DNA from: an uncultured Bacilli bacterium
Lineage (GTDB): Bacteria > Bacillota_I > Bacilli_A > RF39 > UBA660
Assembly: GCA_934167825.1 (NCBI GenBank)
Contig: CAKPLY010000001.1
Span: 5,508 to 69,507 of the forward strand
Length of the DNA: 64,000 nt
Direction: 5' to 3'
Below are positions 16,335 through 63,955 of the stretch, one piece after another. The notes below the pieces were generated by a model, which saw only the letters and a program-made list of their open reading frames with translations, made no database searches and had not been told where the DNA came from. Position 1 is the first letter of the stretch. Each line of letters opens with the position of its first letter. A program made the position numbers and the translations under genes.

Positions 16335-16589
16335 ATGCGTGGAAAAAAAGAAGGTAGCCAACTGACTACAATTTGTAGTCAGTTGAAAATGCTTGCACCA
16401 GATGGAAAAATTAGACTAAGTGATGCAATGAATACTAAAAATATATTTAGACTTATTGAGTCTGTGCCTAGTCCTAAGGCTGAGCCTATGAAACTTTGGT
16501 TAGCAAATCTTGGTAAAGAAAGAATTGATGAAGTAAAGGAGGTATATAATGAAAGAAAGGAAATTAGAAACAATTTTAAATTTATTTGA
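16335..16589 (+). pseudogene. truncated tandem duplicate of the distal half of the Bro-N domain of the downstream gene
   Basis: LKMLAPDGKIRLSDA..FRLIESVPSPKAEPMKLWLANLGKERIDEV parallels residues about 70-125 of the 16549-17400 product; it lacks the N-terminal half. Confidence 0.5.
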
Positions 16590-17400
16590 AGGAAAAGAAA
16601 TAAGAAGTACATGGAATAGTGAAGAGGAAGAATACTATTTTAGTGTAGTTGATGTTATTGGAGCATTAACGGAAAGTTCTAGAGCAAGAAAGTATTGGAA
16701 TGATTTAAAATTTAGATTAACTAATGAAGGAAGTGAGTTGTCCGATAAAATCGGACAACTGAAAATGCAATCTGAAGATGGCAAGTATTACAATACAGAT
16801 GTATTAGATACTAAAGGAATTCTAAGACTTGTACAAAGCGTACCTAGTAAAAAAGCGGAACCATTTAAACTTTGGTTAGCAAATCTTGGTAAAGAAAGAA
16901 TTGATGAAGTATTTGATCCTGAGGTTGCTATTAATCGTGCAGTAGATTACTATAAAAAAAGAGGATATACTAATGAATGGATTAAAGCAAGATTAGATGG
17001 TATTGTTGATAGAAAGAAATTAACAGATGTATGGAAAGATAATGGTATTACATCTAATTATGAATATGGAATATTAACAAATGAAATATATAAAGAATGG
17101 TCAGGTATGAGTGCTAATGAATATAAGGCTTATAAAGGGTTAAGGAAAGAATCTTTAAGAGATAATATGACTGATGTAGAAGTTGCTTTAACAAATCTTG
17201 GAGAAATAGCAACTAGAGAACTTGCTAAAAAGCATAAACCATACGGGTTAAAACAAAATAAAAAAATTGCAAAGATGGGTGGTAATACTGCTAAGGTTGC
17301 AAGAATGGATTTAGAAAATAAGTTAAATGAATCAGTAATAACAAGTGATAATAAATTAGATTATAAATATTTAGATAATGCTAAAATAGAAAATAAATAA
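16549..17400 (+). CDS. Bro-N domain protein (DinD / phage antirepressor-like)
   Basis: N-terminal Bro-N motifs (FSVVDVIGAL.., ILRLVQSVPSKKAEPFKLWLA); 283 aa, close to the length of DinD. Confidence 0.6.
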   Translation: MKERKLETILNLFEGKEIRSTWNSEEEEYYFSVVDVIGALTESSRARKYWNDLKFRLTNEGSELSDKIGQLKMQSEDGKYYNTDVLDTKGILRLVQSVPSKKAEPFKLWLANLGKERIDEVFDPEVAINRAVDYYKKRGYTNEWIKARLDGIVDRKKLTDVWKDNGITSNYEYGILTNEIYKEWSGMSANEYKAYKGLRKESLRDNMTDVEVALTNLGEIATRELAKKHKPYGLKQNKKIAKMGGNTAKVARMDLENKLNESVITSDNKLDYKYLDNAKIENK

Positions 17401-17425
17401 TTTATGAATAATTTTTTCGTAGTAC

Positions 17426-17454
17426 TTGAAAATCATAAAAAATTATGATATTAT
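17426..17454 (+). promoter_or_regulatory. sigma-A promoter TTGAAA-17-TATTAT driving the leader ORF and surface-protein paralog 1
   Basis: Hexamers and 17-bp spacer seen directly. The region is near-identical to 61822-61850. Confidence 0.6.
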
Positions 17455-17528
17455 TTAGATGTATGTTAAAGATATGTGAATTAAAAAGATCCCAAATAAT
17501 TCGCAAATTTTAGAAAGGAGCCATCACT

Positions 17529-17594
17529 ATGAATAGAATAAATTTTGTAATTTATAACATTTATGCTATCGGGGGGGGGGCAATTAACATCTAA
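17529..17594 (+). CDS. 21-codon leader ORF (MNRINFVIYNIYAIGGGAINI) containing a G10 homopolymer (17571-17580)
   Basis: SD AGGAG 8 nt upstream. Conserved at 61909-61974 with an identical G10 tract and C-terminal half. Confidence 0.55.
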   Translation: MNRINFVIYNIYAIGGGAINI

Positions 17595-17618
17595 TAACAA
17601 TATAATAATTGAAAGTAA

Positions 17619-17669
17619 AACTATAGATAAAATATCTAGAAATAGATAATTTTTGTCTATAGTTTTTTC
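17619..17669 (+). terminator. intrinsic terminator between leader ORF and paralog 1 (long stem with inner UAUCUA-GAAA-UAGAUA hairpin, then T6)
   Basis: Outer arm ctatagataaaa pairs with ttttgtctatag (one G-U wobble). GAAA tetraloop. Followed by a U-run. Confidence 0.65.
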
Positions 17670-17693
17670 ATGTGTAAAAAGGAGTTTTAAAAA

Positions 17694-19796
17694 ATGAAAA
17701 GAGTAGTAAATTTTGTAGACAAGAAAGAATTAATAATAATAACAATACTTACATTTTTAATTGCACTAACAGGACTATTCGCAACGTATGCAATAGATAC
17801 TAGTTTAAGTTATAATGATACCACAGAGTATGATATGTCACTTAGTTTTGATTTATCAGCATCTACAAATAAACAAGTAACAATACCTGCAGGTAAAACA
17901 AAATTTTTTGATATAGATGTTAAAAATAGTAACAGTGGTACAATACAATATGGTATTGCATACTCTATGGTTACACCTTCAACATTACCTAATGGAGTAA
18001 CCATTGCTAAGTCTTGGAAAAGTGCAAATCCTCCAACTGGATTAATTAATGCAAACGCTACTTTGCCAGTAACAATAGCAGTAGAAAACACATCATCTAC
18101 AGATATTACAATATCTTTATCTATAATAAATGGATATGAAAAAGGTGGAGATTTAATTTTACCTAGCGGTAAAACTTTGATAACTGGTGAATTTGATGCA
18201 ACACCACCTGTAGAACCAAATGCGCCAGCATTAACAGATGCATTAATACCAATATTATATGAAAGAGATAGTATAATAATGAAAGCAGATTCAAAGGGAG
18301 ATGGAGTTACTGCTACCTGTGATAACTTAGGGGACTTAAATTTTGATGGAAGAATTGATGATAAAGATGTAAGTGCATTTTTGCCTGTTTTTCGAGACGG
18401 TTTTACTTTTCCTAATGTTGTAAAAGTATGTGCAGATGTTGATGGTGATGGTTTTGTTACAGAGGATGATATGAGGTTAATTAAAAATTATTATTATGGA
18501 GATGTGACTACTTTTCCAAAGGGTGAGCCATTGAGTACAGTAACTGGAACTGTATATATTACACCATGGTATGATTATGATAATAAACAATGGGCAAATG
18601 CAGTACTTGTAAGTGAGGCAAATAGACAGAAATATATATCCGCTGAACCTGGAACTGAAATTGCCGAAGAAGATATCCTAGCATTCTATGTATGGATACC
18701 AAGATACAAATATAAAGTATGGAATATAAATAAAGTAATAGGAACACAAAGTTATAACGCAGAAACTGCTGGTATAGATATAGTTTTTGAGGAAGGTACA
18801 AATTCTACTGGTACAATTAGTTGTACATATAGTTATGCAGCACCATCAAGTACCGCGGGAAGTCCAAACGAAACATGTACAGGAAGTAATGGGGACTATT
18901 ACACTCATCCAGCATTTACCTTTGGTAATCAAGAACTAACAGGATTTTGGATGGGAAAATTTGAACTATCAAGTAGTAATCCTACGACAGGTACTTCATA
19001 TGGTGGAGGAGAAACTACAACACTAACACCAAGAATATTACCAAATGTAACATCATGGAGATATAATACAGTATCTAACTATTGGAAAGTAATATATGAT
19101 ATGCAAACAAGTAATAATATATATGGACTTCCAACATCAAGAACAAATACTGATTCACATATGCTTACTAATATGGAGTGGGGAGCAGTAGCATATCTAA
19201 CTAATTCTAAATATGGAAGATGTACAAATGGAAGTTGTACAGAGGTATCAATGAATGGTTACGGAGAATATAGTAGATCTACAACTATGACAGGATGTGG
19301 TCCAATATCAAGTGGAAGTACAAGTTATGGAACAACATGTAATGCATATAATACAGAATTAGGGCAATTAGCTTCTACAACAGGTAATATTACGGGAGTA
19401 TATGATATGTCAGGAGGAGCATATGACTGTGTAATGGGTAATATGTCAAGGTGGAATGGAACATCATATACATATTATGAAAGAAGTGCGGGAACTAACT
19501 TTACATATAGTACAAATACTGCAAAATACCTAATACCATATGCATATGGAACAACAAGTAATAATCAAACAGCATATAATAGAGGAAGACTAGGAGATGC
19601 AACTGGTGAAATAGTAACATCTTCAGGTAATGGTTGGTATAATGACTTCGCAGGTTTTCCTAACACTGCCGGTTCTTGGTTTCGTCGCGGCGACGATTTC
19701 GCCGGTAGTAATGATGGTCTCTTCTGTTTCCTCAGCGGTGATGGCGCTAGTGACAGCAATTCTTCGGGGCGCGCCGTTTTATCCATAGCAACTTAG
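17694..19796 (+). CDS. large secreted/surface protein paralog 1: N-terminal signal anchor, internal dockerin type I repeat pair, C-terminal about 400-aa domain shared with paralog 2
   Basis: Hydrophobic N-terminus. Dockerin repeats DLNFDGRIDDKDVSAFL / DVDGDGFVTEDDMRLIKNYYYG. About 70% identity to the 62072-63955 product over the shared parts. Confidence 0.7.
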   Translation: MKRVVNFVDKKELIIITILTFLIALTGLFATYAIDTSLSYNDTTEYDMSLSFDLSASTNKQVTIPAGKTKFFDIDVKNSNSGTIQYGIAYSMVTPSTLPNGVTIAKSWKSANPPTGLINANATLPVTIAVENTSSTDITISLSIINGYEKGGDLILPSGKTLITGEFDATPPVEPNAPALTDALIPILYERDSIIMKADSKGDGVTATCDNLGDLNFDGRIDDKDVSAFLPVFRDGFTFPNVVKVCADVDGDGFVTEDDMRLIKNYYYGDVTTFPKGEPLSTVTGTVYITPWYDYDNKQWANAVLVSEANRQKYISAEPGTEIAEEDILAFYVWIPRYKYKVWNINKVIGTQSYNAETAGIDIVFEEGTNSTGTISCTYSYAAPSSTAGSPNETCTGSNGDYYTHPAFTFGNQELTGFWMGKFELSSSNPTTGTSYGGGETTTLTPRILPNVTSWRYNTVSNYWKVIYDMQTSNNIYGLPTSRTNTDSHMLTNMEWGAVAYLTNSKYGRCTNGSCTEVSMNGYGEYSRSTTMTGCGPISSGSTSYGTTCNAYNTELGQLASTTGNITGVYDMSGGAYDCVMGNMSRWNGTSYTYYERSAGTNFTYSTNTAKYLIPYAYGTTSNNQTAYNRGRLGDATGEIVTSSGNGWYNDFAGFPNTAGSWFRRGDDFAGSNDGLFCFLSGDGASDSNSSGRAVLSIAT

Positions 19797-19895
19797 TCAC
19801 TTAAGTATATAAAATTAATACTAGTAGATTAATTATACAATACTTATAGTTGATAATATCTACTAGTTTTGTTATACTTATATAGAGGTTATGTT

Positions 19896-20693
19896 ATGGA
19901 ATTTAAGAAAGTATACGTAGAAGTTACTAATAGTTGTAATTTAAGTTGTGATTTTTGTATTAAGAATGATAGAAAGATTAAGTTTATAAATAAAGATGAA
20001 TTTGAAATAGTGTTAGATAAGTTAAAAGATGTTACTAAGTATTTATATTTTCATGTACTTGGGGAACCTTTGATGCATCCTGATATTAATTATTTAATAG
20101 ATAGAGCTAGTAATGTAGGATATAAAGTTAATATTACTACTAATGGGTATTTGATAGATAGAATTAAAGATAATAAGAATATTAGACAGTTAAATATTTC
20201 TTTACATAGTTATAATACTAAATATAATATAGATATAGATGAGTATTTAAGTAATATAGTAAGAGTAGTAGATAATTTAGTTAAGGAAGGTACTATTATT
20301 AATTATAGATTATGGGTAGATTATAAATATAATGATTATATATGTAAGTATTTAAGTAAGTATTATGATGTAGAAATAGATGGTAGTAGTAAAAAGATAA
20401 GTAATAATATTTATATAGATAAAGATAGTTCTTTTATATGGCCTGATTTAAATAATAATTATTATAATTCTAACGGAAGATGTTACGGACTTATTACTCA
20501 TTTTGGTATATTAGTAGATGGTACTATAATACCTTGTTGTTTAGATAGTAAGGGTATAATTAATCTTGGTAATATATATAAAGATAATATTAAAGATGTT
20601 ATGGAAAGTGATAGGGTTAAGGATATGATTAGGGGTTTTAAAAATAATAAAAAGTGTGAAGAATTGTGTAAACATTGTAAATTTTTAGATTAA
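19896..20693 (+). CDS. radical SAM enzyme with C-terminal SPASM/twitch domain (putative peptide-modifying maturase)
   Basis: CNLSCDFC (CxxxCxxC) at the N-terminus. SPASM-like GTIIPCCLDSKGIINLGNIY...ESDRV plus C-terminal CEELCKHC. SD agagg precedes the ATG at 19896 (ORF track start 19869). Confidence 0.65.
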   Translation: MEFKKVYVEVTNSCNLSCDFCIKNDRKIKFINKDEFEIVLDKLKDVTKYLYFHVLGEPLMHPDINYLIDRASNVGYKVNITTNGYLIDRIKDNKNIRQLNISLHSYNTKYNIDIDEYLSNIVRVVDNLVKEGTIINYRLWVDYKYNDYICKYLSKYYDVEIDGSSKKISNNIYIDKDSSFIWPDLNNNYYNSNGRCYGLITHFGILVDGTIIPCCLDSKGIINLGNIYKDNIKDVMESDRVKDMIRGFKNNKKCEELCKHCKFLD

Positions 20694-29221: not shown

Positions 29222-30529
29222 ATGAAAAAGATATTTAATTATATAATGTTTTCAGTGTTTATGTTTGTTATGTTTACTACAAATATACAAGCATATAGTT
29301 ATGAAATTACCAGTAAATCAATATATGCTGGGGAGTATGTAACTTTAACTATTGATGCATCAAATGACATTGGTAAGTTTGATATTACTTCTTCTAATAC
29401 AAATATAATTACAATAGAAAGCGGTAGTAGGTGGTTAGAAAAAGAAAGAGCAACTTTTAAGGTCGTTGCAAAAAAGGCAGGAAGTGCAAATATTACTATT
29501 ACTCCAACTGATGTTTCTACTAGTGAAGGCAAAGAAGTTACTAATCCTAAGGTTATTTCTATTACTGTTACTAATAAACCTGCACCACAAAAACCAGTAC
29601 AAACTCCAAAGTCTAGTAATAATTATTTAACTAGTTTAACTGTTGATGATTATTCTTTAGATAGTGATTTTGATAAAGAAAAGTTAGAGTATAGTGTTAC
29701 AGTAAAACCATTTACTAAAAGTATTAAGATTAATGCTCAAAAAGAAAATGATAAGGCTAATGTAAGTGGAGTTGGAGAAGTTAATTTAAATGATGGTGAT
29801 AATAAGTTTTCTATAGTAGTAACTGCAGAAAATAATGTTAAGAGAACATACGTACTTAATGTAAATGTACCTGTTTTAAAGGATATTGAAGTAGAAGTAG
29901 ATAATAAAAAGTATACTATTGTAAGAGAAGAAGGCAAGCTAGATTTAATCGAAGGATATACAAAGAAAAATATTAGTATAGATAATGAAGAAGATGTATT
30001 ATCATTTTATAGTGATGTTACTAAGTTTCAGTTAGTTATTTTAAAAGATAATGATGGAAATATGGATTATTATATATATGATAATGGTAAGTATACTAAA
30101 TATAAAGAGTATGATTTTTCTTCTGTTAGGATATGTATACTTGATAATAATAATATAGATAAAGATAAGTATTTAAAGACAGATCTTACTATTGGGGAAG
30201 ATAAGATTAATGCATATAAGTTAAAACTAAAAAGTAAGAGTAATACTACTTATGCACTTGATGATAAGTATTTAGATTATTATATAATATATGGAATTAA
30301 TGTTAAGACTGGTAATAAGGGATATTATTTATATGATAGAAAAGAGAATAGTGCAATAAGATATGATGAGGGATTACTTATAAATGAAGTGAGTACTGTA
30401 AGTAATAATGATAATTATAAGACATACTTTTATATATCTTTGATGGTATTTGGAGTAGTTATATTAACTATTGGTATTGTACTTATTGTTAAGGGTAGAA
30501 AAAACAAGAATAAAATTAATTTTAAGTAA
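29222..30529 (+). CDS. surface protein with cadherin-like beta-sandwich domain and C-terminal transmembrane anchor
   Basis: Signal peptide. NYLTSLTVDDYSL..YSVTV..VSGVGEVNLNDGDNKFSIVVTAENNVKRTYVLNVN. C-terminal TM plus KGRKNKNK. Confidence 0.6.
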   Translation: MKKIFNYIMFSVFMFVMFTTNIQAYSYEITSKSIYAGEYVTLTIDASNDIGKFDITSSNTNIITIESGSRWLEKERATFKVVAKKAGSANITITPTDVSTSEGKEVTNPKVISITVTNKPAPQKPVQTPKSSNNYLTSLTVDDYSLDSDFDKEKLEYSVTVKPFTKSIKINAQKENDKANVSGVGEVNLNDGDNKFSIVVTAENNVKRTYVLNVNVPVLKDIEVEVDNKKYTIVREEGKLDLIEGYTKKNISIDNEEDVLSFYSDVTKFQLVILKDNDGNMDYYIYDNGKYTKYKEYDFSSVRICILDNNNIDKDKYLKTDLTIGEDKINAYKLKLKSKSNTTYALDDKYLDYYIIYGINVKTGNKGYYLYDRKENSAIRYDEGLLINEVSTVSNNDNYKTYFYISLMVFGVVILTIGIVLIVKGRKNKNKINFK

Positions 30530-30557
30530 TATAATATAGTATCATTACTAGTATATG

Positions 30558-30595
30558 AAAAGAAAAAGAGCAAGTGTTTGCTTTTTTTCTTTGAT
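30558..30595. terminator. bidirectional terminator (AGCAA-gtgt-TTGCT flanked by A- and T-runs)
   Basis: Seen directly between the convergent genes. Confidence 0.5.
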
Positions 30596-30610
30596 AGTAT
30601 ATATAAAAAG

Positions 30611-30641
30611 AAAAGTACTTATATTTAAGTACTTTTCTTAT
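30611..30641. terminator. hairpin aagaaaagtactt/aagtacttttctt with flanking runs (terminator for minus-strand transcripts)
   Basis: Perfect 13-bp inverted repeat. Confidence 0.5.
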
Positions 30642-30746
30642 ATAAAGAGATTGACACACACATACTAATAACAAGCATTGGTGAATAACTTTTTAATTTC
30701 AAATTTTAATAATTTGAAATAAATTAGGATGTGAAATATTTATCTC
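30642..30746 (-). ncRNA. candidate small RNA: minus-strand TTGACA-17-TATCAT promoter (30754-30782) to the terminator at 30611-30641, with no ORF between
   Basis: Consensus promoter hexamers on the minus strand, terminator hairpin plus U-run, no SD-preceded ORF. Inference only. Confidence 0.3.
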
Positions 30747-30854
30747 AGTTATAATGATATCATATTATTTTTACTTTGTCAAATGTTTTTGTCGAAAATT
30801 TTTATTTTTTGTCAAAAAAGTGTGCGAGATGTAGAAAAATAGTGTAATTTTAGT

Positions 30855-33800
30855 TTATTTTTCTTTTACTAATTTTTTCGGCTCTTCAATTTTGATATTA
30901 CTTTGTTCTAATGTTTCGATGTAACTTGTTACACTGCTATTTAGTACGTTTATTGTACCTTTAGCGTTATAAAAGTCATTTAATTTATCTAAAGTAATTT
31001 TTGCGTCATCAGCATTTTTATATAATAATGCTTTGAATAAATCCATAACATCTTTGGATAACTCAATGGTTCTTTTTTCATTTTCGATTCCTTGTCCTAT
31101 TAATAGTTCTGATCCTATTAATGGTAATAAGTCATCTCTTGCAGTTTCTAAAGCATTAATAGTAAGAAAGTGATTTACTATCATTTGATTTAATTTTACT
31201 AGTTCTTGATTTAATAGTTGGTTTGATGTAATAAATCTTTCTTTTTTGTTTTTTACTATTTGTAGTTGTGAAGAAACATCAAGATAATTTGAATATTCAA
31301 ATGGATTTGATGGATCAATAGTTTGTAATTTGTTTTCTAGTAATTTTATCATATCTATAGTTTTTAATAGAAATTCATAATTCTTTTTTGAATATTCACT
31401 TATATATTTTTTTAACTTATCGTAAGTAAGTAATTCTTTGGATAATAATTCTATGTTTTTTGATATTGCGTCTTTTAAAATATGGAAATTTTCTATTTTA
31501 ATATTTGATTCTTTTTCTCCGGATTCAACACTAAAGAGACTACTAAAAAATCCTTTTTTCTTTTCTTCAGGTTGATAACACTTGTTAACTAATTCATTAA
31601 TTGTTTCAACTGATTTTTCTGTACTATCACTATCAATTAATTTTTGTTGTTCTTGGTTTATGGTTTTAAAGTGACTTGTTAGAATGTTACCATAATTAAC
31701 TATATTAATTGTGCTTGTTAAATCTATTGAAGATACTTCGATGTTTTGCAAACTTTTAATACATTCACTTAATGTAGGTATATATTCTTTGCCTGTAATT
31801 ATTTCTTTTTGTAATATACTATAGTTTTCATCACTTAAATTACTGATGATTTTTAAGATTTTACTATTGTTTACTTCATTACTAAATAGTTTCTTTATAA
31901 TACTAGAAATAGAATAATCTTTTTCTTCAAGATATTTTTGGTAATTTAATCCTAATCTATAAGATGTTTCAGTACTTTTTATATTAGGGTTAGTAATATT
32001 TAAATACTCTAGTATTCTTTCTTTAGTTATATTATATTTTTTTAATGTCTTTGCTATAAATACTATATTATTATTTTTATCATCATCTATTTCTATAGTG
32101 TTATATGTATCAAAGAATGCTAAAATTAAAGATAGTTTTTCTTTGTCTAAATCTGTAATATTTGGTATTTTTTCTATTATAGTATTATATTTTATTGCAT
32201 TTGTTAAATATTCTTTGCTTAAACTAGAATTAGTATTTCTTAGCAAACTTTCACATCTTTGTTTAGTAGAATAATTTTCATATTGAGTATCTAGATCGTT
32301 AAAATCTTCATAGTTTTTTGATATATGATGTAAGAATCTTATTAGATATGTTCCATCATATAATTCTTTATTAAAAATATTTCTAAATATATGATATGGT
32401 GTTAAATCTTTTCTTTCTACTGAAATGTTATAACCTTTGAAAATGTAATCTAAGTAATTGTTGTATAATATTTCATTGAAATCTTTATCATTTGTTACAA
32501 CACTAGAAAAATACTGTTTATCATTTATAAGTCCTTTTTCTTTAAGAAAATCTTGTAATGATTTGTCATTTAATGTTGCATATAATATTGCAGCAACTTT
32601 TTTGTCTTCAGGACTTAAATTATTTAAAATTTTTTCTAATTCGGCATCTTGTTTTGCGATACATTTTAAATAATTAATTGTACTTGGTTTTAAATCAGTA
32701 TATAATTCTTTATATATAAAGTCTTGATGTTCTTGCTGTTTTCTTTCAGTGAATTCTTTTAATTCTTTAGTAATATCATCAATCTTTTTATCTTTTGATA
32801 AATCATTAAAGATGTTTTCTAGAACTAGACTATTACCGTTATTAAAAGTAATTTTATTTTCTTTTTGATTTATAGTTGTTGATTCATAAACACTTTTTAC
32901 TTTACTGAAACTAACTTTAGTACTTTCTAGTTCTTCTTTAGTGATATTGATACCTAGAAGATTAAATATTTTATCATAAGTTATGTCATGTTCTTCATAG
33001 AAGTTATATAAAGATTTGTTAGTAAATAGGTATGCTAAAGATATTATATCGTTATTATTCTTTAGATATTTTGTATTATCTTTCTTTTTACTTAGTATAA
33101 GAGTGTATGCTTTAGTTAAGTTAATTAAGACATTTTTGTCATTGTCAGTTATATTTTGCTCTTTTAGAAAATCATTTATTTTTATTTGTTCATCTCTTTC
33201 ATCAAGTAAGTCTAGGATATTATCTTTATATAAGTTATAACTTGATAGGATAGTTTCTACTATAGTACTATTTGTGGCATTTCTATTAAATAGAGTAGCA
33301 AATAATTCTCTAGTGGGATCTAATTTTATATTCTTTAAGCATTCTATATATGGTTGATAATATTTTTTTATTACAAGATAATTAGGTTTTAATGTAAGGT
33401 TAGATAAAACATCGTTGTATTTGGAAATTAATGATGTATCTATTTTTAATTTATTAATCATTTCTTTTATGTTGCTATCTTTACTTGTAAGAAAACTCAT
33501 AAATAATGATAATGCTGCAATGTCTTCTTTAGAGTTACAATTTGCAAAACAATTTTTTAAACTTGATAATTTTTCTTTATCATTATTTTCAGGATTAATA
33601 TATGCATTATATATTGAAGAAGCAGTTTCAATTAAATTTACGACATTTATTTGAATATTAGAAAATACTTCTTTTTTTAAATCGTTTTTAATTTTACTTT
33701 TTTCTTCCTCAATTATTTTCTCTATATTTAAATTATTATATTCTTCTTGTGTTATAAAATATTTATGAAAATAAAAGCTGCCATCCCTATATATTTCTGG

Positions 33801-34241
33801 ATCAAAAGTTGTGCTGTCTTTGTAAATGTTGTTAATTATGTCTAATGTAGTAAGTCCATAGTAATCTTCGACATTATTATATATTTGAAAATAATTTTTA
33901 TATGTATTAAAGGTTTCTTTTAGATTGTTTTTTTCAATATTTATTATTGTTTCCTTATATGATATTTCGACGTCATTGCGATCAACAAATTTTCCTTTTG
34001 CTAATTCTCTTGCGATATATTGATAATTATTTTTGCCATATAGTGCTTCAATAAACATTACGATTTCTTTTAAAAAAGTACTACCAATTATATATTTATA
34101 AATATATTGATCTAATTTAACGACGATATACAAATCTGAATTATAAGTTCGTAAGTGATATAGATATTTTAAAACTGTGTTTACATATGTTTTTGTTTCT
34201 TTTGGTATTATTTCCATAAATTCTTCATAACTTATATTCAT
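30855..34241 (-). CDS. large (1128 aa) Lys/Asn/Glu/Ile-rich predicted helical protein of unknown function
   Basis: Long ORF with native codon usage, strong SD agaggggg, promoter TTGACA-17-TATCAT. No recognisable catalytic motif. Confidence 0.6.
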   Translation of the reverse strand: MNISYEEFMEIIPKETKTYVNTVLKYLYHLRTYNSDLYIVVKLDQYIYKYIIGSTFLKEIVMFIEALYGKNNYQYIARELAKGKFVDRNDVEISYKETIINIEKNNLKETFNTYKNYFQIYNNVEDYYGLTTLDIINNIYKDSTTFDPEIYRDGSFYFHKYFITQEEYNNLNIEKIIEEEKSKIKNDLKKEVFSNIQINVVNLIETASSIYNAYINPENNDKEKLSSLKNCFANCNSKEDIAALSLFMSFLTSKDSNIKEMINKLKIDTSLISKYNDVLSNLTLKPNYLVIKKYYQPYIECLKNIKLDPTRELFATLFNRNATNSTIVETILSSYNLYKDNILDLLDERDEQIKINDFLKEQNITDNDKNVLINLTKAYTLILSKKKDNTKYLKNNNDIISLAYLFTNKSLYNFYEEHDITYDKIFNLLGINITKEELESTKVSFSKVKSVYESTTINQKENKITFNNGNSLVLENIFNDLSKDKKIDDITKELKEFTERKQQEHQDFIYKELYTDLKPSTINYLKCIAKQDAELEKILNNLSPEDKKVAAILYATLNDKSLQDFLKEKGLINDKQYFSSVVTNDKDFNEILYNNYLDYIFKGYNISVERKDLTPYHIFRNIFNKELYDGTYLIRFLHHISKNYEDFNDLDTQYENYSTKQRCESLLRNTNSSLSKEYLTNAIKYNTIIEKIPNITDLDKEKLSLILAFFDTYNTIEIDDDKNNNIVFIAKTLKKYNITKERILEYLNITNPNIKSTETSYRLGLNYQKYLEEKDYSISSIIKKLFSNEVNNSKILKIISNLSDENYSILQKEIITGKEYIPTLSECIKSLQNIEVSSIDLTSTINIVNYGNILTSHFKTINQEQQKLIDSDSTEKSVETINELVNKCYQPEEKKKGFFSSLFSVESGEKESNIKIENFHILKDAISKNIELLSKELLTYDKLKKYISEYSKKNYEFLLKTIDMIKLLENKLQTIDPSNPFEYSNYLDVSSQLQIVKNKKERFITSNQLLNQELVKLNQMIVNHFLTINALETARDDLLPLIGSELLIGQGIENEKRTIELSKDVMDLFKALLYKNADDAKITLDKLNDFYNAKGTINVLNSSVTSYIETLEQSNIKIEEPKKLVKEK

Positions 34242-50796: not shown

Positions 50797-50835
50797 ATTT
50801 ACAAAACTTATAAAAGATTAAGTAAGTTAATATTT

Positions 50836-51000
50836 ATTTTATAGAGAGTTTGTGGGTGGTGAAAGCAAATAATAAAGTTAACTGAATGCTACTTTTAGAT
50901 ATGTGTAGTAATAACTACCGGATGATTCCGTTATAAAAAATAAGTAAAAATAAGGTGGTACCACGATTAATAATCGTCCTTTGTGTGTGCCATCTTTTTA
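50836..51000 (+). ncRNA. T-box riboswitch leader, alanine specifier (GCU), controlling the P-loop gene + alaS
   Basis: Stem I AGAGAG..GGTGA (K-turn). Specifier GCUA at about 50886. Conserved T-box AAGGTGGTACCACG at 50952-50965. Downstream hairpin plus U-run. Confidence 0.65.
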
Positions 51001-51028: not shown

Positions 51029-51580
51029 ATGAACAAATTAATAGCAATAGTAGGAATGTGTGGAAGTGGAAAAAGCGTAGCGTGTGACAAGTTAGTTAGT
51101 ATGGGGTATAACAAAATATACTTTGGAGGAGTTACAATGGATTGTCTTAAGGAAAAGGGACTTGAAATTAACCCTGAAAATGAGAAAATGATGCGAGAGA
51201 AGTTACGTGAAGATTTAGGTATGGGAGCATTTGCGATAATTCTTTTACCTAAGATTGAAGAAGCGGTAAAAAAGGGAGATACTGTACTAGATGGTGTATA
51301 TTCTTATGATGAAGTAAAAATATTAAAAGATAAATTTGCTAATCTTAAGATAGTTGCAGTAGTATGTGATAAAAAGACAAGATATGGAAGATTAAAGGTA
51401 AGAAGTATTAGACCACTTACAGAAGAAGAAGCAGAGAAAAGAGATGTTAGTGAGGTAGAAAATATTAAGAAGGCTCCTCCAATTGCTTTAGCAGATTATT
51501 ATATAGATAATAATGGTACAGTGGAAGAATATAATAAGAGAATACTTGAAATACTTGATGATATAGGAAGTGATAAATAA
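51029..51580 (+). CDS. P-loop NTPase / putative nucleotide kinase-like protein
   Basis: Walker A GMCGSGKS; 183 aa. Co-transcribed with alaS behind the T-box. Confidence 0.45.
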   Translation: MNKLIAIVGMCGSGKSVACDKLVSMGYNKIYFGGVTMDCLKEKGLEINPENEKMMREKLREDLGMGAFAIILLPKIEEAVKKGDTVLDGVYSYDEVKILKDKFANLKIVAVVCDKKTRYGRLKVRSIRPLTEEEAEKRDVSEVENIKKAPPIALADYYIDNNGTVEEYNKRILEILDDIGSDK

Positions 51581-54270
51581 TGAAGAAATTAACTGGGGAA
51601 GAGATAATTAATACATTTTTAAATTATTTTAAGGAACATGGGCATAAGGTTATAGAATCTGCACCACTAATACCTAAGGATGATCCTAGTGTTTTATGGA
51701 TTAATGCTGGTGTTACACCTTTAAAAAAATATTTTGATGGTAGTGTTGTTCCAGAAAATAGAAGGATGGTTGGAGTACAAAAATGTATAAGAACGGGAGA
51801 TATTGAAAGTGTTGGTAAGACTGCAAGACATCATACTTTCTTTCAAATGTTAGGTAACTTTAGTGTAGGAGATTATTTTAAGGATGAAGCAATTAGTATG
51901 TCATATGAGTTATTAACTAGTCCTAAATATTTTGGGTTTGATAAAGATAAACTATATGTTACAGTGTATCCAACTGATGAAGAAGCTTATAATAAATGGT
52001 TAAGTCTTGGAGTAGATAAATCGCATATAATAAAACTAGAAAATAATTTTTGGGAGATAGGTGAAGGACCTAGTGGACCAGATAGTGAGATATTTTATGA
52101 TCGTGGAGAAAAATACGATAAGGATAATCTAGGTATTAAATTACTTCAAGAGGAAATAGAAAATGATAGGTATATAGAGATATGGAATAATGTATTTAGT
52201 CAATATAATGCTGTTATGGGTGTACCAAGAAGTGAATATAAGGAACTTCCTAGTAAGAATATAGATACTGGTATGGGAGTAGAGAGAATGGCATGTATTA
52301 TGCAAGAAGTAGAAACTAACTATGAAACAGATTTATTTATTCCTATAATTAAGAAAATAGAAGAGATATCTATGAGAGAATATCATGGAGATATGGAGTT
52401 TAAAGTTATAGCAGATCATATTAGAACACTAGTATTTGCCTTAAGTGATGGTGCAACATTCTCTAACTATGGAAGAGGTTATGTACTTAGAAGACTTCTT
52501 AGAAGAAGCGTTAGAATGGGTAAGAAGTTAGGAATAAGTAAGAATTTCTTAAGTGATTTGGTAGATACTGTTGTTAGTATTTATGTTACTACATATAGAA
52601 ATTTAAGTAATAATATAAAAGAAATAAAAGATGTTATTACTAAGGAAGAAGAATTATTTAAACGTACTTTACTTTCTGGAGAGAAAAGGTTAGAAGAACT
52701 TCTTAATAGTGATGATAAGGTTATTAGTGGACTTGATGCATATAAGTTATATGATACTTATGGATTTCCTGTTGAGTTAACTATAGAGATTGCTTTAGAA
52801 AAAGGTAAGACTGTAGATAAAGATGGATTTGATAAGTATATGGAAGAAGGAAAAATTTTAGCAAGAAATAATAGAAAAGAAGATAGTAGTATGCATATAC
52901 AAAATGAGTTATTACTTAACTACAAGAAAGATAGCGATTTTGTTGGGTATAACTACTTAGAGTGTGCTAGTACTATTATTGATATTATTAAAGATAATAC
53001 TTTTGTTAATGAACTTAATGATTTTGGGTATATAGTACTTGATAAGACACCTTTTTATGCTACTAGCGGGGGACAAATATATGATACTGGTACTATAACT
53101 GAAAGAGGAGTATTAGCAGAAGTTACTGAGGTAGTTAAGGCTCCTAATAAACAACATTTAATGTATGTTCATGTTAAAAATGGTAGTTTAAAAGTAGGAG
53201 ACGTTGTTACTTCTTCAGTAGATAAATCAAGAAGATTTAATATTATGAAGAATCATAGTAGTGTTCATTTACTTCAAAAGACATTACAAGAATTACTTTC
53301 TTCAAACGTACATCAGGCAGGTTCTAGTGTTACAGAAGATAGTTTTAGATTTGACTTTATATATCAAGGTAAACTTAGTGATGAATTAATACTTGATGTT
53401 GAAAAAAGAGTTAATGAAAGAGTTAATGAAGGGGTAGATACTAAGATAGAGACAATGAGTTTAGAAGAAGCAACTAAAAAGAATGCTATGGCTTTATTTG
53501 AAGATAAATATGGTAGTGTTGTTAGAGTTGTTACTTTAGGAGATTCTGTTGAACTTTGTGCAGGAACTCATGTTAAGAATACTAAAGATATTAAAAGGAT
53601 TGCTATATTATCTGTAGAAAATAAGGGAAGTAATACTTATAGAATTACTGGTGCTACTGATAAGTTTATAGGTAAGATGTTATCTATAGAGATTAAACCA
53701 TATAGAGATGAGATTACTAAATTATTAGAAAAAGCTAAAAGGATTATGGTTGACGCTAAAGAACTTGGAATAGAATTAGAGTTTGATTTTAGTGTTGATT
53801 TTGATGAATTAGATAGTTATAAAGATGTTATTGATATTAAAAATAATCTTAATACTTTAAAAGATAAAGTTAAAGAATTAGAAAAGTTATATAATGAAAA
53901 GAAAGTATTAACTAGTATTAAGGATTTGAGTGCATTTACTGATAGTAAAATAATGATTAATGATGTTAATACTATTGTAGCAATTACTGATAATTATGAA
54001 GGTAATATACTAAAACAAATAACTGATGAGTTAGCAAATAAATATGATAAGTACTTTATATTACTTGCAAACACTAAAGGTAATAATGTAAACTTTATAT
54101 GTAAGAGTAATTATGATAAGGTAAATGTTGGTTCTGTTATTAGAGAACTTAGTCAAAAATGTCTTGGCAATGGTGGAGGAAATAAAAACTTTGCACAAGG
54201 TGGAGGAACAGATATTACAAATCTTGGTGCTAACTTACAAGATATTAAAGAGTATTTAAGAAATTTATAA
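51580..54270 (+). CDS. alaS: alanyl-tRNA synthetase
   Basis: HHTFFQMLGNFS class II signature, editing domain, and a C-terminal DHHA1-like region with GGGNKNFAQGGG. Confidence 0.95.
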   Translation: MKKLTGEEIINTFLNYFKEHGHKVIESAPLIPKDDPSVLWINAGVTPLKKYFDGSVVPENRRMVGVQKCIRTGDIESVGKTARHHTFFQMLGNFSVGDYFKDEAISMSYELLTSPKYFGFDKDKLYVTVYPTDEEAYNKWLSLGVDKSHIIKLENNFWEIGEGPSGPDSEIFYDRGEKYDKDNLGIKLLQEEIENDRYIEIWNNVFSQYNAVMGVPRSEYKELPSKNIDTGMGVERMACIMQEVETNYETDLFIPIIKKIEEISMREYHGDMEFKVIADHIRTLVFALSDGATFSNYGRGYVLRRLLRRSVRMGKKLGISKNFLSDLVDTVVSIYVTTYRNLSNNIKEIKDVITKEEELFKRTLLSGEKRLEELLNSDDKVISGLDAYKLYDTYGFPVELTIEIALEKGKTVDKDGFDKYMEEGKILARNNRKEDSSMHIQNELLLNYKKDSDFVGYNYLECASTIIDIIKDNTFVNELNDFGYIVLDKTPFYATSGGQIYDTGTITERGVLAEVTEVVKAPNKQHLMYVHVKNGSLKVGDVVTSSVDKSRRFNIMKNHSSVHLLQKTLQELLSSNVHQAGSSVTEDSFRFDFIYQGKLSDELILDVEKRVNERVNEGVDTKIETMSLEEATKKNAMALFEDKYGSVVRVVTLGDSVELCAGTHVKNTKDIKRIAILSVENKGSNTYRITGATDKFIGKMLSIEIKPYRDEITKLLEKAKRIMVDAKELGIELEFDFSVDFDELDSYKDVIDIKNNLNTLKDKVKELEKLYNEKKVLTSIKDLSAFTDSKIMINDVNTIVAITDNYEGNILKQITDELANKYDKYFILLANTKGNNVNFICKSNYDKVNVGSVIRELSQKCLGNGGGNKNFAQGGGTDITNLGANLQDIKEYLRNL

Positions 54271-61794: not shown

Positions 61795-61821
61795 TTTTTT
61801 ACTTTTTTTCTTTTAAATCTA

Positions 61822-61850
61822 TTGATAAAACACTAAAGTTATGATATTAT
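61822..61850 (+). promoter_or_regulatory. sigma-A promoter TTGATA-17-TATTAT (copy 2 of the leader control region)
   Basis: The spacer and -10 context match those at 17426-17454. Confidence 0.6.
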
Positions 61851-61908
61851 TTAGATGTATGTTAAAGATATGTGAATTATCACAGATTCTAGAAAGGAGC
61901 CCCTCATC

Positions 61909-61974
61909 ATGAATAAATTAAATTTTATGAATTATAACATTTATGCTATCGGGGGGGGGGCAATTAACATATAA
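61909..61974 (+). CDS. 21-codon leader ORF copy 2 (MNKLNFMNYNIYAIGGGAINI) with G10 tract at 61951-61960
   Basis: Same SD, G10 tract and C-terminal 12 codons as at 17529-17594. Confidence 0.55.
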   Translation: MNKLNFMNYNIYAIGGGAINI

Positions 61975-62000
61975 AAATAATATATTAACAAAGAATATAA

Positions 62001-62049
62001 CTATAGATAAAATATCTAGAAATAGATAGTTTTTGTCTATAGTTTTTTT
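62001..62049 (+). terminator. intrinsic terminator copy 2 (same nested hairpin, T7)
   Basis: Near-identical to 17619-17669. Confidence 0.65.
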
Positions 62050-62071
62050 GTGTAAAAAGGAGTTTTAAATA

Positions 62072-63955
62072 ATGAAAAAAGTAATAAATTTTGTAGACAA
62101 GAAAGAATTAATAATAATAACAATACTTACATTTTTAATTGCACTTACAGGACTATTTGCAACGTATGCAATAGATACTAGTTTAAGTTATAATGACACC
62201 ACAGAGTATGATATGTCACTTAATTTTGATTTATCTGCATCTACGAATAAACAAGTAACAATCCAAGCAGGCAAAACAAAATTCTTTGATATAGATGTTA
62301 AAAATAGTAATAATGGTACAATAAAGTATGGTATTGCATACTCTATGGTTACTCCATCAATTTTACCTGATGGAGTAACTATTGCGAAGTCCTGGAAAAG
62401 CGCAAATCCTACAACTGGATTAATTAACGCAAATGTTACATTACCAGTAACTATCGCCGTAGAAAACACGTCATCAACAGATATCACAATATCATTATCT
62501 ATAATAAATGGATATGAAAAAGGTGGAGATTTGATTGTACCTACTAGTAAAACTTTGATAACTGGTGTATATAGAGTAGGGCCACCTCCAGAACCAAATA
62601 CTCCTGTATTAACAGATGCTTTAATACCTGTTACTTACAATGATTCTACTTCAACTTGGGTGAAGGCAGATTCGACAAACAATAATAATTCGTGGTATAA
62701 CTATAAAAACAAAATATGGGCAAATGCAGTATTAGTATCATCTACAAATCGTAGTACATACCAGTCTGCAAGTGCAGGAACAACTATAGCAGACGTAGAT
62801 ATCTTAGCATTTTATGTATGGATACCAAGATATAAATATAAAGTATGGAATAAAGATAAAATAATGGGTACACAAAGTTATAATGCACAAACTGAAGGTA
62901 TAGATATAGTTTTTGAAGAAGATATTGATTCTACTGGTACAATAAGTTGTACATATAGTTATGAAGCACCATCAAATACTGCAGGAAGTCCAAATGAAAC
63001 TTGTGCAGGAAGTAATGGAAATTACTATACTCATCCAGCGTTTACTTTTGGTGATCAAGAGCTAACAGGATTTTGGATGGGAAAGTTTGAATTGTCTAGT
63101 AGTGATCCTGCGACTGGTTCATCATATGGTGGATCATATAGTACTACACTAACTCCAAGAATATTACCAAATGTAACATCATGGAGATATAATAATTTAT
63201 CAAGTTATTGGAAAGTAATATATGATATGCAAGTAAGTAATAATATATATGGACTACCAACCTCAAGAACAAATACCGATTCACATATGCTTACTAATAT
63301 GGAGTGGGGAGCAGTAGCATATCTAACTAATTCAAAATATGGAAGATGTACAAATGGAAGTTGTACAGAAGTATCAATTAATGGTGCATGGGATAATAGT
63401 GATGGTGGTTCTAACTATTATACGTATTATACAACAAAAACTGGTTGTGGTCCAATATCAAGTGGAAGTACAAGTTCTGGAACAACATGTAATGCATATA
63501 ATACAACATTAGGACAAATGGCATCCACTACAGGTAATGTATATGGAATATATGATATGTCCGGAGGTTCAGATGAATTAGTGATGGGTAATATATCAAG
63601 TGAAAGTGGAATATCGTATACATATAATGCAGGTTACACAGGTTCTTACTTTACATATAGTACAGATACAGCAAAATATCTAATACCATATGCATACGGA
63701 ACAACAAGAAATGACCAAACAGCATATAATAGAGGAAGACTAGGAGATGCAACAAGTGAAGTAGTATCTAGAGCAAGTTATGGATGGTATAGTGATAGTG
63801 CTAATTTCCCTTTTAGTAGTGAGTCGTGGTTTAAACGTGGAGGCACTTTTTATTATGATTCTGGTATAACTGGAATTTTTACTTTTACTGCAGAAGGTGG
63901 TGCTGAGGGATTTGAACATTATTCAACCCGTGCTGCTCTCTCTATAGCAAACTAA
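62072..63955 (+). CDS. large secreted/surface protein paralog 2 (no dockerin insert)
   Basis: The first 160 aa are nearly identical to paralog 1, and the C-terminal domain is shared (YVWIPRYKYKVWN, THPAFTFG.QELTGFWMGKFELSSS, MLTNMEWGAVAYLTNSKYG); ends RAALSIAN. Confidence 0.7.
   Translation: MKKVINFVDKKELIIITILTFLIALTGLFATYAIDTSLSYNDTTEYDMSLNFDLSASTNKQVTIQAGKTKFFDIDVKNSNNGTIKYGIAYSMVTPSILPDGVTIAKSWKSANPTTGLINANVTLPVTIAVENTSSTDITISLSIINGYEKGGDLIVPTSKTLITGVYRVGPPPEPNTPVLTDALIPVTYNDSTSTWVKADSTNNNNSWYNYKNKIWANAVLVSSTNRSTYQSASAGTTIADVDILAFYVWIPRYKYKVWNKDKIMGTQSYNAQTEGIDIVFEEDIDSTGTISCTYSYEAPSNTAGSPNETCAGSNGNYYTHPAFTFGDQELTGFWMGKFELSSSDPATGSSYGGSYSTTLTPRILPNVTSWRYNNLSSYWKVIYDMQVSNNIYGLPTSRTNTDSHMLTNMEWGAVAYLTNSKYGRCTNGSCTEVSINGAWDNSDGGSNYYTYYTTKTGCGPISSGSTSSGTTCNAYNTTLGQMASTTGNVYGIYDMSGGSDELVMGNISSESGISYTYNAGYTGSYFTYSTDTAKYLIPYAYGTTRNDQTAYNRGRLGDATSEVVSRASYGWYSDSANFPFSSESWFKRGGTFYYDSGITGIFTFTAEGGAEGFEHYSTRAALSIAN

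Follow-up and report, generated by a model that had tools for sequence, protein, structure and literature searches.

Known leader switches and the locus under study

A phase switch built from a translated leader and a terminator has been described in Streptococcus gallolyticus, in which GCAGA repeats in the leader-peptide gene of the pil1 and pil3 loci change the length of that gene (Danne et al., 2014, PLoS Pathog, PMC3894217). Longer leaders, whose stop lies in or near a stem-loop terminator of −18.7 kcal/mol, gave more transcription downstream of the stem-loop, leaders stopping at least 28 nucleotides (nt) before the terminator gave low expression, and delta-term, ATG* and 3-STOP mutants as well as chloramphenicol were used to test the effect (PMC3894217). 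Here we analyse an arrangement of the same general design in the window, a stretch of 64,000 nt of contig CAKPLY010000001.1 from an uncultured Bacilli bacterium. In it, a short leader open reading frame (ORF) containing a run of ten G residues, followed by an intrinsic terminator, precedes a surface-protein gene, and the whole occurs in two copies, both on the forward (+) strand. The comparison of this locus with its relatives suggests, with a probability of roughly 0.75, that tract, leader and terminator would form a cis-acting switch turning the surface-protein gene ON and OFF in a heritable and stochastic manner.

Other phase-variable systems share single parts of this design. Poly-G/C tracts in Campylobacter and Neisseria, the poly-A tract of the Mycoplasma vlp genes and the poly-G tract of the Treponema tpr genes are classical cases of homopolymer phase variation. 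The cwpV and flgB switches of Clostridioides difficile work by site-specific DNA inversion. In Helicobacter pylori, the small RNA (sRNA) RepG pairs with a variable G-repeat in the 5' untranslated region (UTR) of tlpB, and the output is translational. For the two C. difficile switches a published account is available (PMC5386303).

Anatomy of the leader cassette

Copy 1 of the cassette begins with an extended −10 promoter (17426-17454) made up of TTGAAA (17426-17431), a 17-nt spacer and TATTAT (17449-17454), with TG at 17446-17447. Its 5' UTR carries the conserved motif CCAAATAATTCGCAA (17492-17506) and a leader Shine-Dalgarno (SD) sequence, AAGGAG (17515-17520), which is joined to the start codon by the C-rich spacer CCATCACT (17521-17528; both together 17515-17528). 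The leader ORF starts with ATG at 17529 and has 21 codons in its short, G10 state (17529-17594), encoding MNRINFVIYNIYAIGGGAINI*. The variable element, the G10 homopolymer, occupies 17571-17580. From the leader stop there are 24 nt to the base of the intrinsic terminator (17619-17669), formed by a hairpin of approximately 20 bp (17619-17664) and a T6 tail. The hairpin was predicted to fold with −18.1 kcal/mol (z = −6.1) and 0 of 200 shuffled sequences folded as well. The gene for the 700-amino acid (aa) surface protein follows with its own SD (AGGAG, 17680-17684) and its ATG at 17694, the segment from SD to gene end covering 17680-19796. The tract is placed in a separate ORF, 3' of the promoter and 114 nt upstream of the main ATG.

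The number of G residues sets the frame in which the leader is read beyond the tract. With G9 or G12 the ORF extends to a TAA in the 3' arm of the inner stem (17647-17649), giving a read-in frame of 17529-17649 in window numbering and a peptide of 39 aa in the G9 form; with G8 or G11 it stops at GGC AAT TAA. Runs of at least eight G were found only twice in the window, at 17571-17580 and at 61951-61960, the latter in the second copy. Counted as overlapping windows of G8 or more, six were observed against 0.05 expected from shuffles, and no shuffle reached that count, at an average GC content of about 26% and with a strong skew of G over C on the read strand. An earlier note on this DNA, made from its letters alone, had described the promoter, the SD-preceded leader with its G10, the terminator 24 nt past the leader stop, the main gene with its own SD and ATG, and the frames of G10, G9/G12 and G11. 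Each of them was found where it had been placed, the frames were reproduced exactly, and the shuffles bear out its claim that such a run is improbable here.

Conservation of the frame rule

Further cassettes were collected from metagenomes with the pattern G8-N{35,65}-ATCTAGAAATAGAT, which is free of information on frame, outer stem, T tract, SD and promoter. It matched 22 loci, 20 of which were real and two of which (L084 and L101) were chance hits. The loci L102, L103, L109 and L111 were added by protein-based look-ups, bringing the set to 28 cassettes (24 + 4) from gut metagenomes and metagenome-assembled genomes (MAGs); look-ups with the proteins P0041, P0005 and P0084 gave family genes only and no cassette. 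The 28 cassettes fall into two leader subfamilies that have diverged from each other, L094 standing apart as a decayed outlier.

In all 28 cassettes exactly one of the frames set by the tract enters the hairpin, where it ends in the inner 3' arm at an AGA-TAA/TAG common to all, and the other two stop 2-19 nt after the tract, that is, 24-43 nt before the hairpin base. Among the 20 distinct sequences, stops numbered 0 in the read-in frame and 5-8 and 2-6 in the other two. With one-base indels beside the tract, a different tract length becomes the read-in class (L088, L091, L097, L096a and L094). The G tract and the frame running into the hairpin, which the earlier note had read in the window, are kept in every cassette, a length of at least eight G being set by the search pattern. 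An SD and an ATG were present in 24/24 cassettes, the tract lying 33-61 nt after the leader ATG. A promoter of the form TTGnnn-17-TAT(C/T)AT with TG was located 35-160 nt upstream of this ATG in 20/21, evidence that is supportive only, as promoter-like matches are common in AT-rich DNA. The outer stem used as the sole query against all collected loci revealed no cassette with a short or interrupted tract.

Shuffling gave the full geometry in 9-17% of trials per sequence, which corresponds to about 0.002 over three lineages if these are independent. Approximately one in six single substitutions would break the geometry, and at least 17 and at least 25 events have been tolerated in the two subfamilies (p of roughly 0.045 and 0.011). 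Within the read-in frame, substitutions fall evenly on the codon positions and are mostly nonsynonymous (142 nonsynonymous vs 26 synonymous and 150 vs 36), a pattern from which it appears that what is conserved is the open frame and not the peptide. The only repeated codons of the leader are the three GGG made by the tract itself, through which an effect of Gly-tRNA is possible.

Two side observations concern the cassettes. In subfamily-2 cassettes (e.g., L081, L014 and L093) a small conserved AU-rich hairpin, C(C)TTATAAAATAAG(G), lies at +17 to +33 after the tract, between tract and terminator; the window's subfamily lacks it, and it might act as a pause element for the polymerase or be no more than conserved sequence. 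In addition, seven contigs (L080, L082, L085, L092, L095, L097 and L099) end within 100-220 nt of a cassette, which fits assembly breaks at a multi-copy or length-heterogeneous element.

Tract length polymorphism

Tract length was compared between samples and assemblies. The locus of copy 1, G10 in the window, is G9 in ENA ERZ27287232 (L102): the alignment of 5104 nt shows one single-nucleotide polymorphism and a single gap, located in the tract. The G9 of L102 is the read-in state, and the gene caller had annotated the resulting 39-aa ORF. Likewise, L085 (G9) and L092 (G10) showed 0 mismatches over 247 nt, L081 (G10) and L095 (G8) one mismatch over 688 nt, and L086 (G9) and L089 (G10) differ at the same locus. 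Nine of the 28 cassettes are in the read-in state, a proportion near the one third expected for unselected slippage, and G10 is the commonest length. In the otherwise near-identical pair L086 and L089 the T tail of the terminator was also seen to differ by one T, and this tail may be a second, minor length-variable homopolymer.

Poly-G positions across the family

The genes behind the cassettes belong to a large family, of which 79 protein-selected loci (438 kb, 23-32% GC) were taken from species-representative MAGs. They contain 27 G runs of 8-13, all 27 on the gene strand and on the 5' side of family genes, in three architectures. In architecture A, that of the window and L014, the tract lies in a leader ORF followed by the hairpin terminator and a separate SD and ATG. 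Architecture B places it within the first 6-21 codons of the structural gene itself (G9-G13 in L017, L027, L035, L038, L039, L040, L045, L053, L056, L059 and L060, at positions near 2250-2790, or 1100-1660 in L053 and L059). There, exactly one length class opens an ORF of 500-1040 aa and the other two give 11-30 aa. As assembled, five B loci are ON and six OFF, and these six out-of-frame genes among 11 would be annotated as pseudogenes or truncated genes. In architecture C the tract lies between a TTGAC(A/T)-like or TTGATT −35 and the −10, for example TTGATT-(3+G9+5 = 17 nt)-TATAAT, and sets spacers of 16-20 nt (G8-G10 at L072:436, 2525 and 6355, L076:15 and 1603, L077:2431, L078:2431 and L079:68).

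The classical positions of a simple sequence repeat, in the regulated ORF or in the −35/−10 spacer, are not those of the window tracts, and in the family they are occupied in L017-L060 (coding sequence) and L072-L079 (spacer). As both are textbook modes of homopolymer phase variation and occur in homologs, the tracts of architecture A are very likely phase-variation tracts too. Promoter-spacer-type genes were also observed to carry CTCTAGAAATAGAG in their 5' UTR (L072:462-475), close to the inner hairpin ATCTAGAAATAGAT of the leader cassettes, a resemblance that hints at a common ancestry of the 5' regions of both types.

The terminator and its surroundings

The cassette hairpins, evaluated in silico in 14 sequence variants, have 18-20 bp, −15 to −18.5 kcal/mol and T6-7 tails. 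A simple terminator scan missed them because it accepts only short stems with three or more G-C pairs. Scanned with custom criteria, the window contains 11 sites with a hairpin plus T5 that reach −10 kcal/mol; the two leader hairpins were the strongest and most of the others sit 8-14 nt past ORF ends. The T tract and the main SD are just 10-20 nt apart, which leaves the structural gene without a promoter of its own and dependent on read-through. RNAalifold and single folds gave no conserved alternative structure overlapping the 5' arm of the terminator, and the search for an antiterminator was negative. With no competing antiterminator predicted, any effect of a ribosome must be steric. In the pyrBI leader the ribosome likewise acts on the terminator sterically.

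A search of Rfam 15 gave no match at the gathering score and, within 17400-17720, none at E ≤ 1 except a chance match of 16 bits. Elsewhere in the window, at 50809-50995, a T-box leader (RF00230) was observed with 89.1 bits (gathering score 93; E = 4e-20), below the default Rfam threshold. Its terminator (50953-50995, −16.4 kcal/mol) lies upstream of an AAA-domain ORF and alaS, the alanyl-tRNA synthetase gene (51029-54270), and with this terminator of similar strength before alaS the genome demonstrably uses such leader terminators for attenuation.

The C-rich spacer and the 5'-UTR motif

The spacer between leader SD and ATG is C-rich in every cassette, with a C fraction of 0.46 against 0.01 in main-gene spacers and 0.086 on the strand, and in all of them it resembles the anti-SD sequence. 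Pairing between spacer and G tract was predicted with −12 to −16 kcal/mol, enclosing the leader start, and was recovered by RNAalifold and in single folds (z about −2); in copy 1 of the window it reaches only −6.6 kcal/mol. As a speculation, the spacer might gate leader translation to the first, polymerase-coupled ribosome, or mask the SD-like G run.

A wider proposal joins two ideas: that the cassette is a portable phase-variation module placed before many paralogs and that its spacer is a kinetic gate for ribosome-mediated antitermination. We regard this combination as rather doubtful. According to its first part, promoter, leader, G tract and terminator would be moved together by recombination, yielding combinatorial surface variation in an uncultured lineage of the human gut. 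According to the second, the spacer would pair with the G tract about 50 nt later and close the leader start soon after it is transcribed, so that only a ribosome loaded directly behind RNA polymerase would join the termination decision. Such a gate, as a second layer, would not have been described before.

The motif CCAAATAATTCGCAA is confined to the 5' UTRs of cassettes, where it precedes the tract by 64-94 nt. Besides copy 1 of the window it is carried by L081, L085, L086, L088, L089, L093, L095, L098 and L099, sometimes as two tandem copies with a 25-nt pitch, and copy 2 lacks it. Possible roles are those of an operator or a recombination site.

Proposed mechanism and alternative explanations

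The proposed switch builds on the observed anatomy of the cassettes, their conserved frame geometry and the polymorphism of the tract. From the dedicated promoter a transcript would start that begins with the short translated leader containing the poly-G tract, and slipped-strand mispairing at replication, which we infer from the polymorphism, would alter this tract by at least one G. For two of the three classes of tract length, the ribosome on the leader would be released 24-43 nt before the hairpin, the hairpin and U tract would form behind RNA polymerase, and transcription would end before the surface-protein gene (OFF). In the third class, G9/G12 in the window, the ribosome would read through the 5' arm and the loop to its stop within the inner 3' arm. 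The ribosome, with a footprint near 30 nt, would block the hairpin while the polymerase crosses the U tract, and after read-through the structural gene would be translated from its own SD and ATG (ON). How efficiently the hairpin terminates and how closely ribosome and polymerase are coupled are likewise inferred parts of this scheme. Its polarity follows by analogy with the pil1 switch of S. gallolyticus, on which both window copies, being G10, would be in the OFF state. The path from tract length to frame to terminator read-through, as the earlier note had drawn it, gains support from the geometry of the 28 cassettes, the lack of constraint on the peptide, the polymorphic tracts and the poly-G of homologs, all of them comparisons of sequence.

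Several points weigh against this switch. Its support is computational and comparative and comes from assembled DNA, in which differences of homopolymer length could partly be sequencing or assembly error. The invariance of the core and the minimum tract length arise by construction, as the search pattern required the exact 14-nt core and at least eight G, and the frame geometry is not very improbable for a single sequence (9-17%). The hairpin stems are AU-rich, with only 3-4 G-C pairs, and show no compensatory covariation (0 double changes). A C-rich spacer predicted to pair with the tract is not explained by the simple model. Finally, transcription and translation are weakly coupled in some Firmicutes, as in the runaway transcription of B. 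subtilis. Weak coupling would weaken ribosome-mediated antitermination, though such antitermination works in S. gallolyticus.

That same spacer is the basis of an alternative in which the tract is phase-variable and acts through RNA structure or an RNA partner. Its length would tune pairing with the spacer in cis or with an sRNA in trans, and the pairing would alter leader translation or the fate of the mRNA, as with the G-repeat of H. pylori RepG-tlpB. The spacer is indeed C-rich in every cassette (0.46 vs 0.01 and 0.086), and a duplex of −12 to −16 kcal/mol is recovered by both folding approaches. Pairing leaves unexplained why one frame is open and two are closed early in 20 distinct sequences, a change from G9 to G10 would alter the pairing energy little, and the spacer of copy 1 is weak (−6.6 kcal/mol). 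We take this explanation to be improbable as a replacement of the switch, to which it could rather be an added layer. The same low standing is given to a constitutive dimmer, in which the DNA tract would be fixed and non-heritable slippage, by RNA polymerase or by a +1 ribosomal shift on rare GGG codons, would shift a constant fraction of ribosomes to the read-in frame. Slippage is known to occur on runs of 9-10 identical bases, GGG codons should be rare at about 26% GC and G10 is the commonest length. However, the tract differs between otherwise identical loci of different samples, all three frame classes occur, and other family tracts lie in promoter spacers, where only a change of the DNA can act; both kinds of slippage may also coexist.

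The long leader of 39-42 aa might also be a phase-variable functional small protein, with the hairpin as its terminator and the downstream gene independent of it. The 39-aa ORF was annotated by the gene caller in L102, and stops near or inside terminator stems occur at ordinary gene ends. Against it, the read-in frame has no third-position bias and is dominated by nonsynonymous differences, which argues against a functional small protein and on which this candidate was rejected. Between the two subfamilies the peptides show no relation other than where the hairpin dictates the sequence, and the 10-20 nt between T tract and main SD leave the downstream gene without its own promoter. This explanation is very improbable. 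Least credible of all is that the G tracts and their length differences are artefacts of sequencing or assembly. Homopolymers are error-prone and many contigs break near cassettes, but dozens of independent assemblies and species have the tracts at homologous functional positions, in every case on the gene strand and in conserved context.

The second copy and the regulated proteins

The whole arrangement is repeated at 61822-62074, approximately 90% identical to copy 1 from the −10 box on. The promoter of copy 2 (61822-61850) has TTGATA, a 17-nt spacer and TG-n-TATTAT. Its leader SD, C-rich spacer CCCCTCATC (61900-61908) and 21-codon leader ORF in the G10 state (61909-61974) together cover 61894-61974, with the tract at 61951-61960; the corresponding locus in ERZ28614049 (L109) has G10 as well. 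The terminator hairpin with its T7 tail (61999-62049) has −18.1 kcal/mol and z = −5.6, and the read-in stop is a TAG at 62027-62029. An SD and a gene for a 627-aa paralog, 77% identical to the copy 1 protein, follow at 62057-63955. In a related strain, ERZ4560347 (L111), compared with the window over 61800-63955, the same chromosomal site just after pnp was observed to hold a dockerin-type gene like that of copy 1 (P0003) behind a nearly identical but mosaic cassette. From this comparison, recombination seems to reshuffle the structural genes that lie behind cassettes.

A membrane anchor at the N terminus and a conserved C-terminal domain of approximately 400 aa are common to the two downstream proteins, and the copy 1 protein contains a dockerin insert. 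The C-terminal domain had no sequence match in Pfam, NCBIfam or PDB, searches of the regulated protein in these databases returned the dockerin insert (copy 1) and sub-threshold noise only, and AlphaFold2 with an alignment of 40 sequences gave no confident model of the domain (pLDDT 31.9). The family comprises 2950 homologs at E < 1e-20, none of them named. The MAGs that supplied the 79 loci bear the titles uncultured Bacilli, Tenericutes, Mycoplasma or Clostridiales, and paralogs are numerous within a genome. Neither the two window proteins nor P0034 gave a match when looked up by exact sequence, and the near-identical proteins P0001 and P0015 served in their place. The main ORFs of the cassettes are intact in every tract state.

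Among the neighbouring genes, a Bro-N domain protein (phage-associated, antirepressor-like) is encoded at 16549-17400, directly upstream of the copy 1 cassette. Directly downstream of the copy 1 surface-protein gene, at 19869-20693, lies a radical-SAM/SPASM gene, and the surface-protein gene itself has the conserved Cys motifs CTNGSCTEV and GCGP...TTCNAY. The radical-SAM/SPASM gene, which could putatively encode a maturase, was not found after copy 2 (L109). Farther away, the region 30000-34000 has a GC content of 0.215-0.229, a GC skew of about 0 and a negative AT skew, which suggests a block of opposite-strand genes or an inserted island.

Comparison with known systems

If the switch is true, the combination of leader peptide and terminator, so far known only from the pili of S. 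gallolyticus, would be a convergently evolved design that works even with the simplest possible repeat. It would provide a large set of independently switchable surface proteins in a poorly known, abundant and uncultured lineage of the human gut, and displayed surface proteins matter for host-microbe and phage-microbe interactions. Promoter spacer, coding region and leader attenuator all carry poly-G within this one gene family. The annotation of MAGs is affected as well, since homologs with the tract in the coding region can look like frameshifted pseudogenes, and the frame rule provides a sequence signature for finding further switches.

With the pyrBI leader of E. coli, and more loosely with those of trp and his, the window element would share a ribosome close behind RNA polymerase that sterically blocks the terminator hairpin, as is also discussed in PMC3894217. 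Its input differs, being a heritable change in DNA length that would set the frame instead of the supply of nucleotides or aminoacyl-tRNA, and the mutually exclusive antiterminator and terminator hairpins of trp/his-type attenuation were not found here. With classical homopolymer phase variation it shares the variable element, the presumed slipped-strand mechanism and surface proteins as targets, whereas its tract lies in a separate upstream ORF and would act through a terminator. As the tract is outside both structural gene and promoter, the structural ORF stays intact in the OFF state. The cwpV and flgB switches of C. difficile resemble it as phase-variable surface or motility operons whose transcripts start at a constitutive promoter and end prematurely in the leader, but depend on inversion and not on repeat slippage or leader translation. 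In H. pylori RepG/tlpB a variable G homopolymer of an mRNA leader also pairs with a C/U-rich RNA, a pairing that here is predicted; the partner there is an sRNA acting in trans, whereas here it lies in cis and the conservation of the frame points to a leader-peptide mechanism.

The closest system is that of S. gallolyticus pil1/pil3. The earlier note had taken the mechanism to be an undescribed one, which does not hold, as the same logic has been proven in these loci (PMC3894217); its label of translational attenuator is also to be replaced, the process being transcription attenuation mediated by translation. A literature search, which was not exhaustive, found no report of a homopolymer version or of such a switch in this lineage. 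Experimental proof belongs to S. gallolyticus, and the window element is known from sequence alone. The two differ further in the repeat (13-22 GCAGA pentamers there, a G homopolymer here) and in the host, which here belongs to an uncultured low-GC gut lineage of Bacilli ('Tenericutes'-labelled). The cargo here is a mosaic multigene family of non-pilus surface proteins, and the element is a modular cassette with many copies per genome before different genes and with a conserved C-rich spacer predicted to pair with the tract. There is no sequence homology between the systems and their leaders are unrelated. In both, nevertheless, a promoter, an SD-ATG leader ORF with a simple-sequence repeat, a terminator and a surface-structure gene follow each other, and the terminators are of like strength (−18.7 kcal/mol there and −18.1 here). 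In both, out-of-frame changes of the repeat lengthen the leader, whose stop then falls in or near the terminator, and short leaders end upstream of it at a distance of at least 28 nt there and at least 24 nt here. About one third of the states are ON there and, with the proposed polarity, here. The G homopolymer and the unrelated leaders make the window element an analogue and not a homologous member of the pil1-type switch: it is an independent homopolymer variant of the leader-peptide and terminator phase switch already described.

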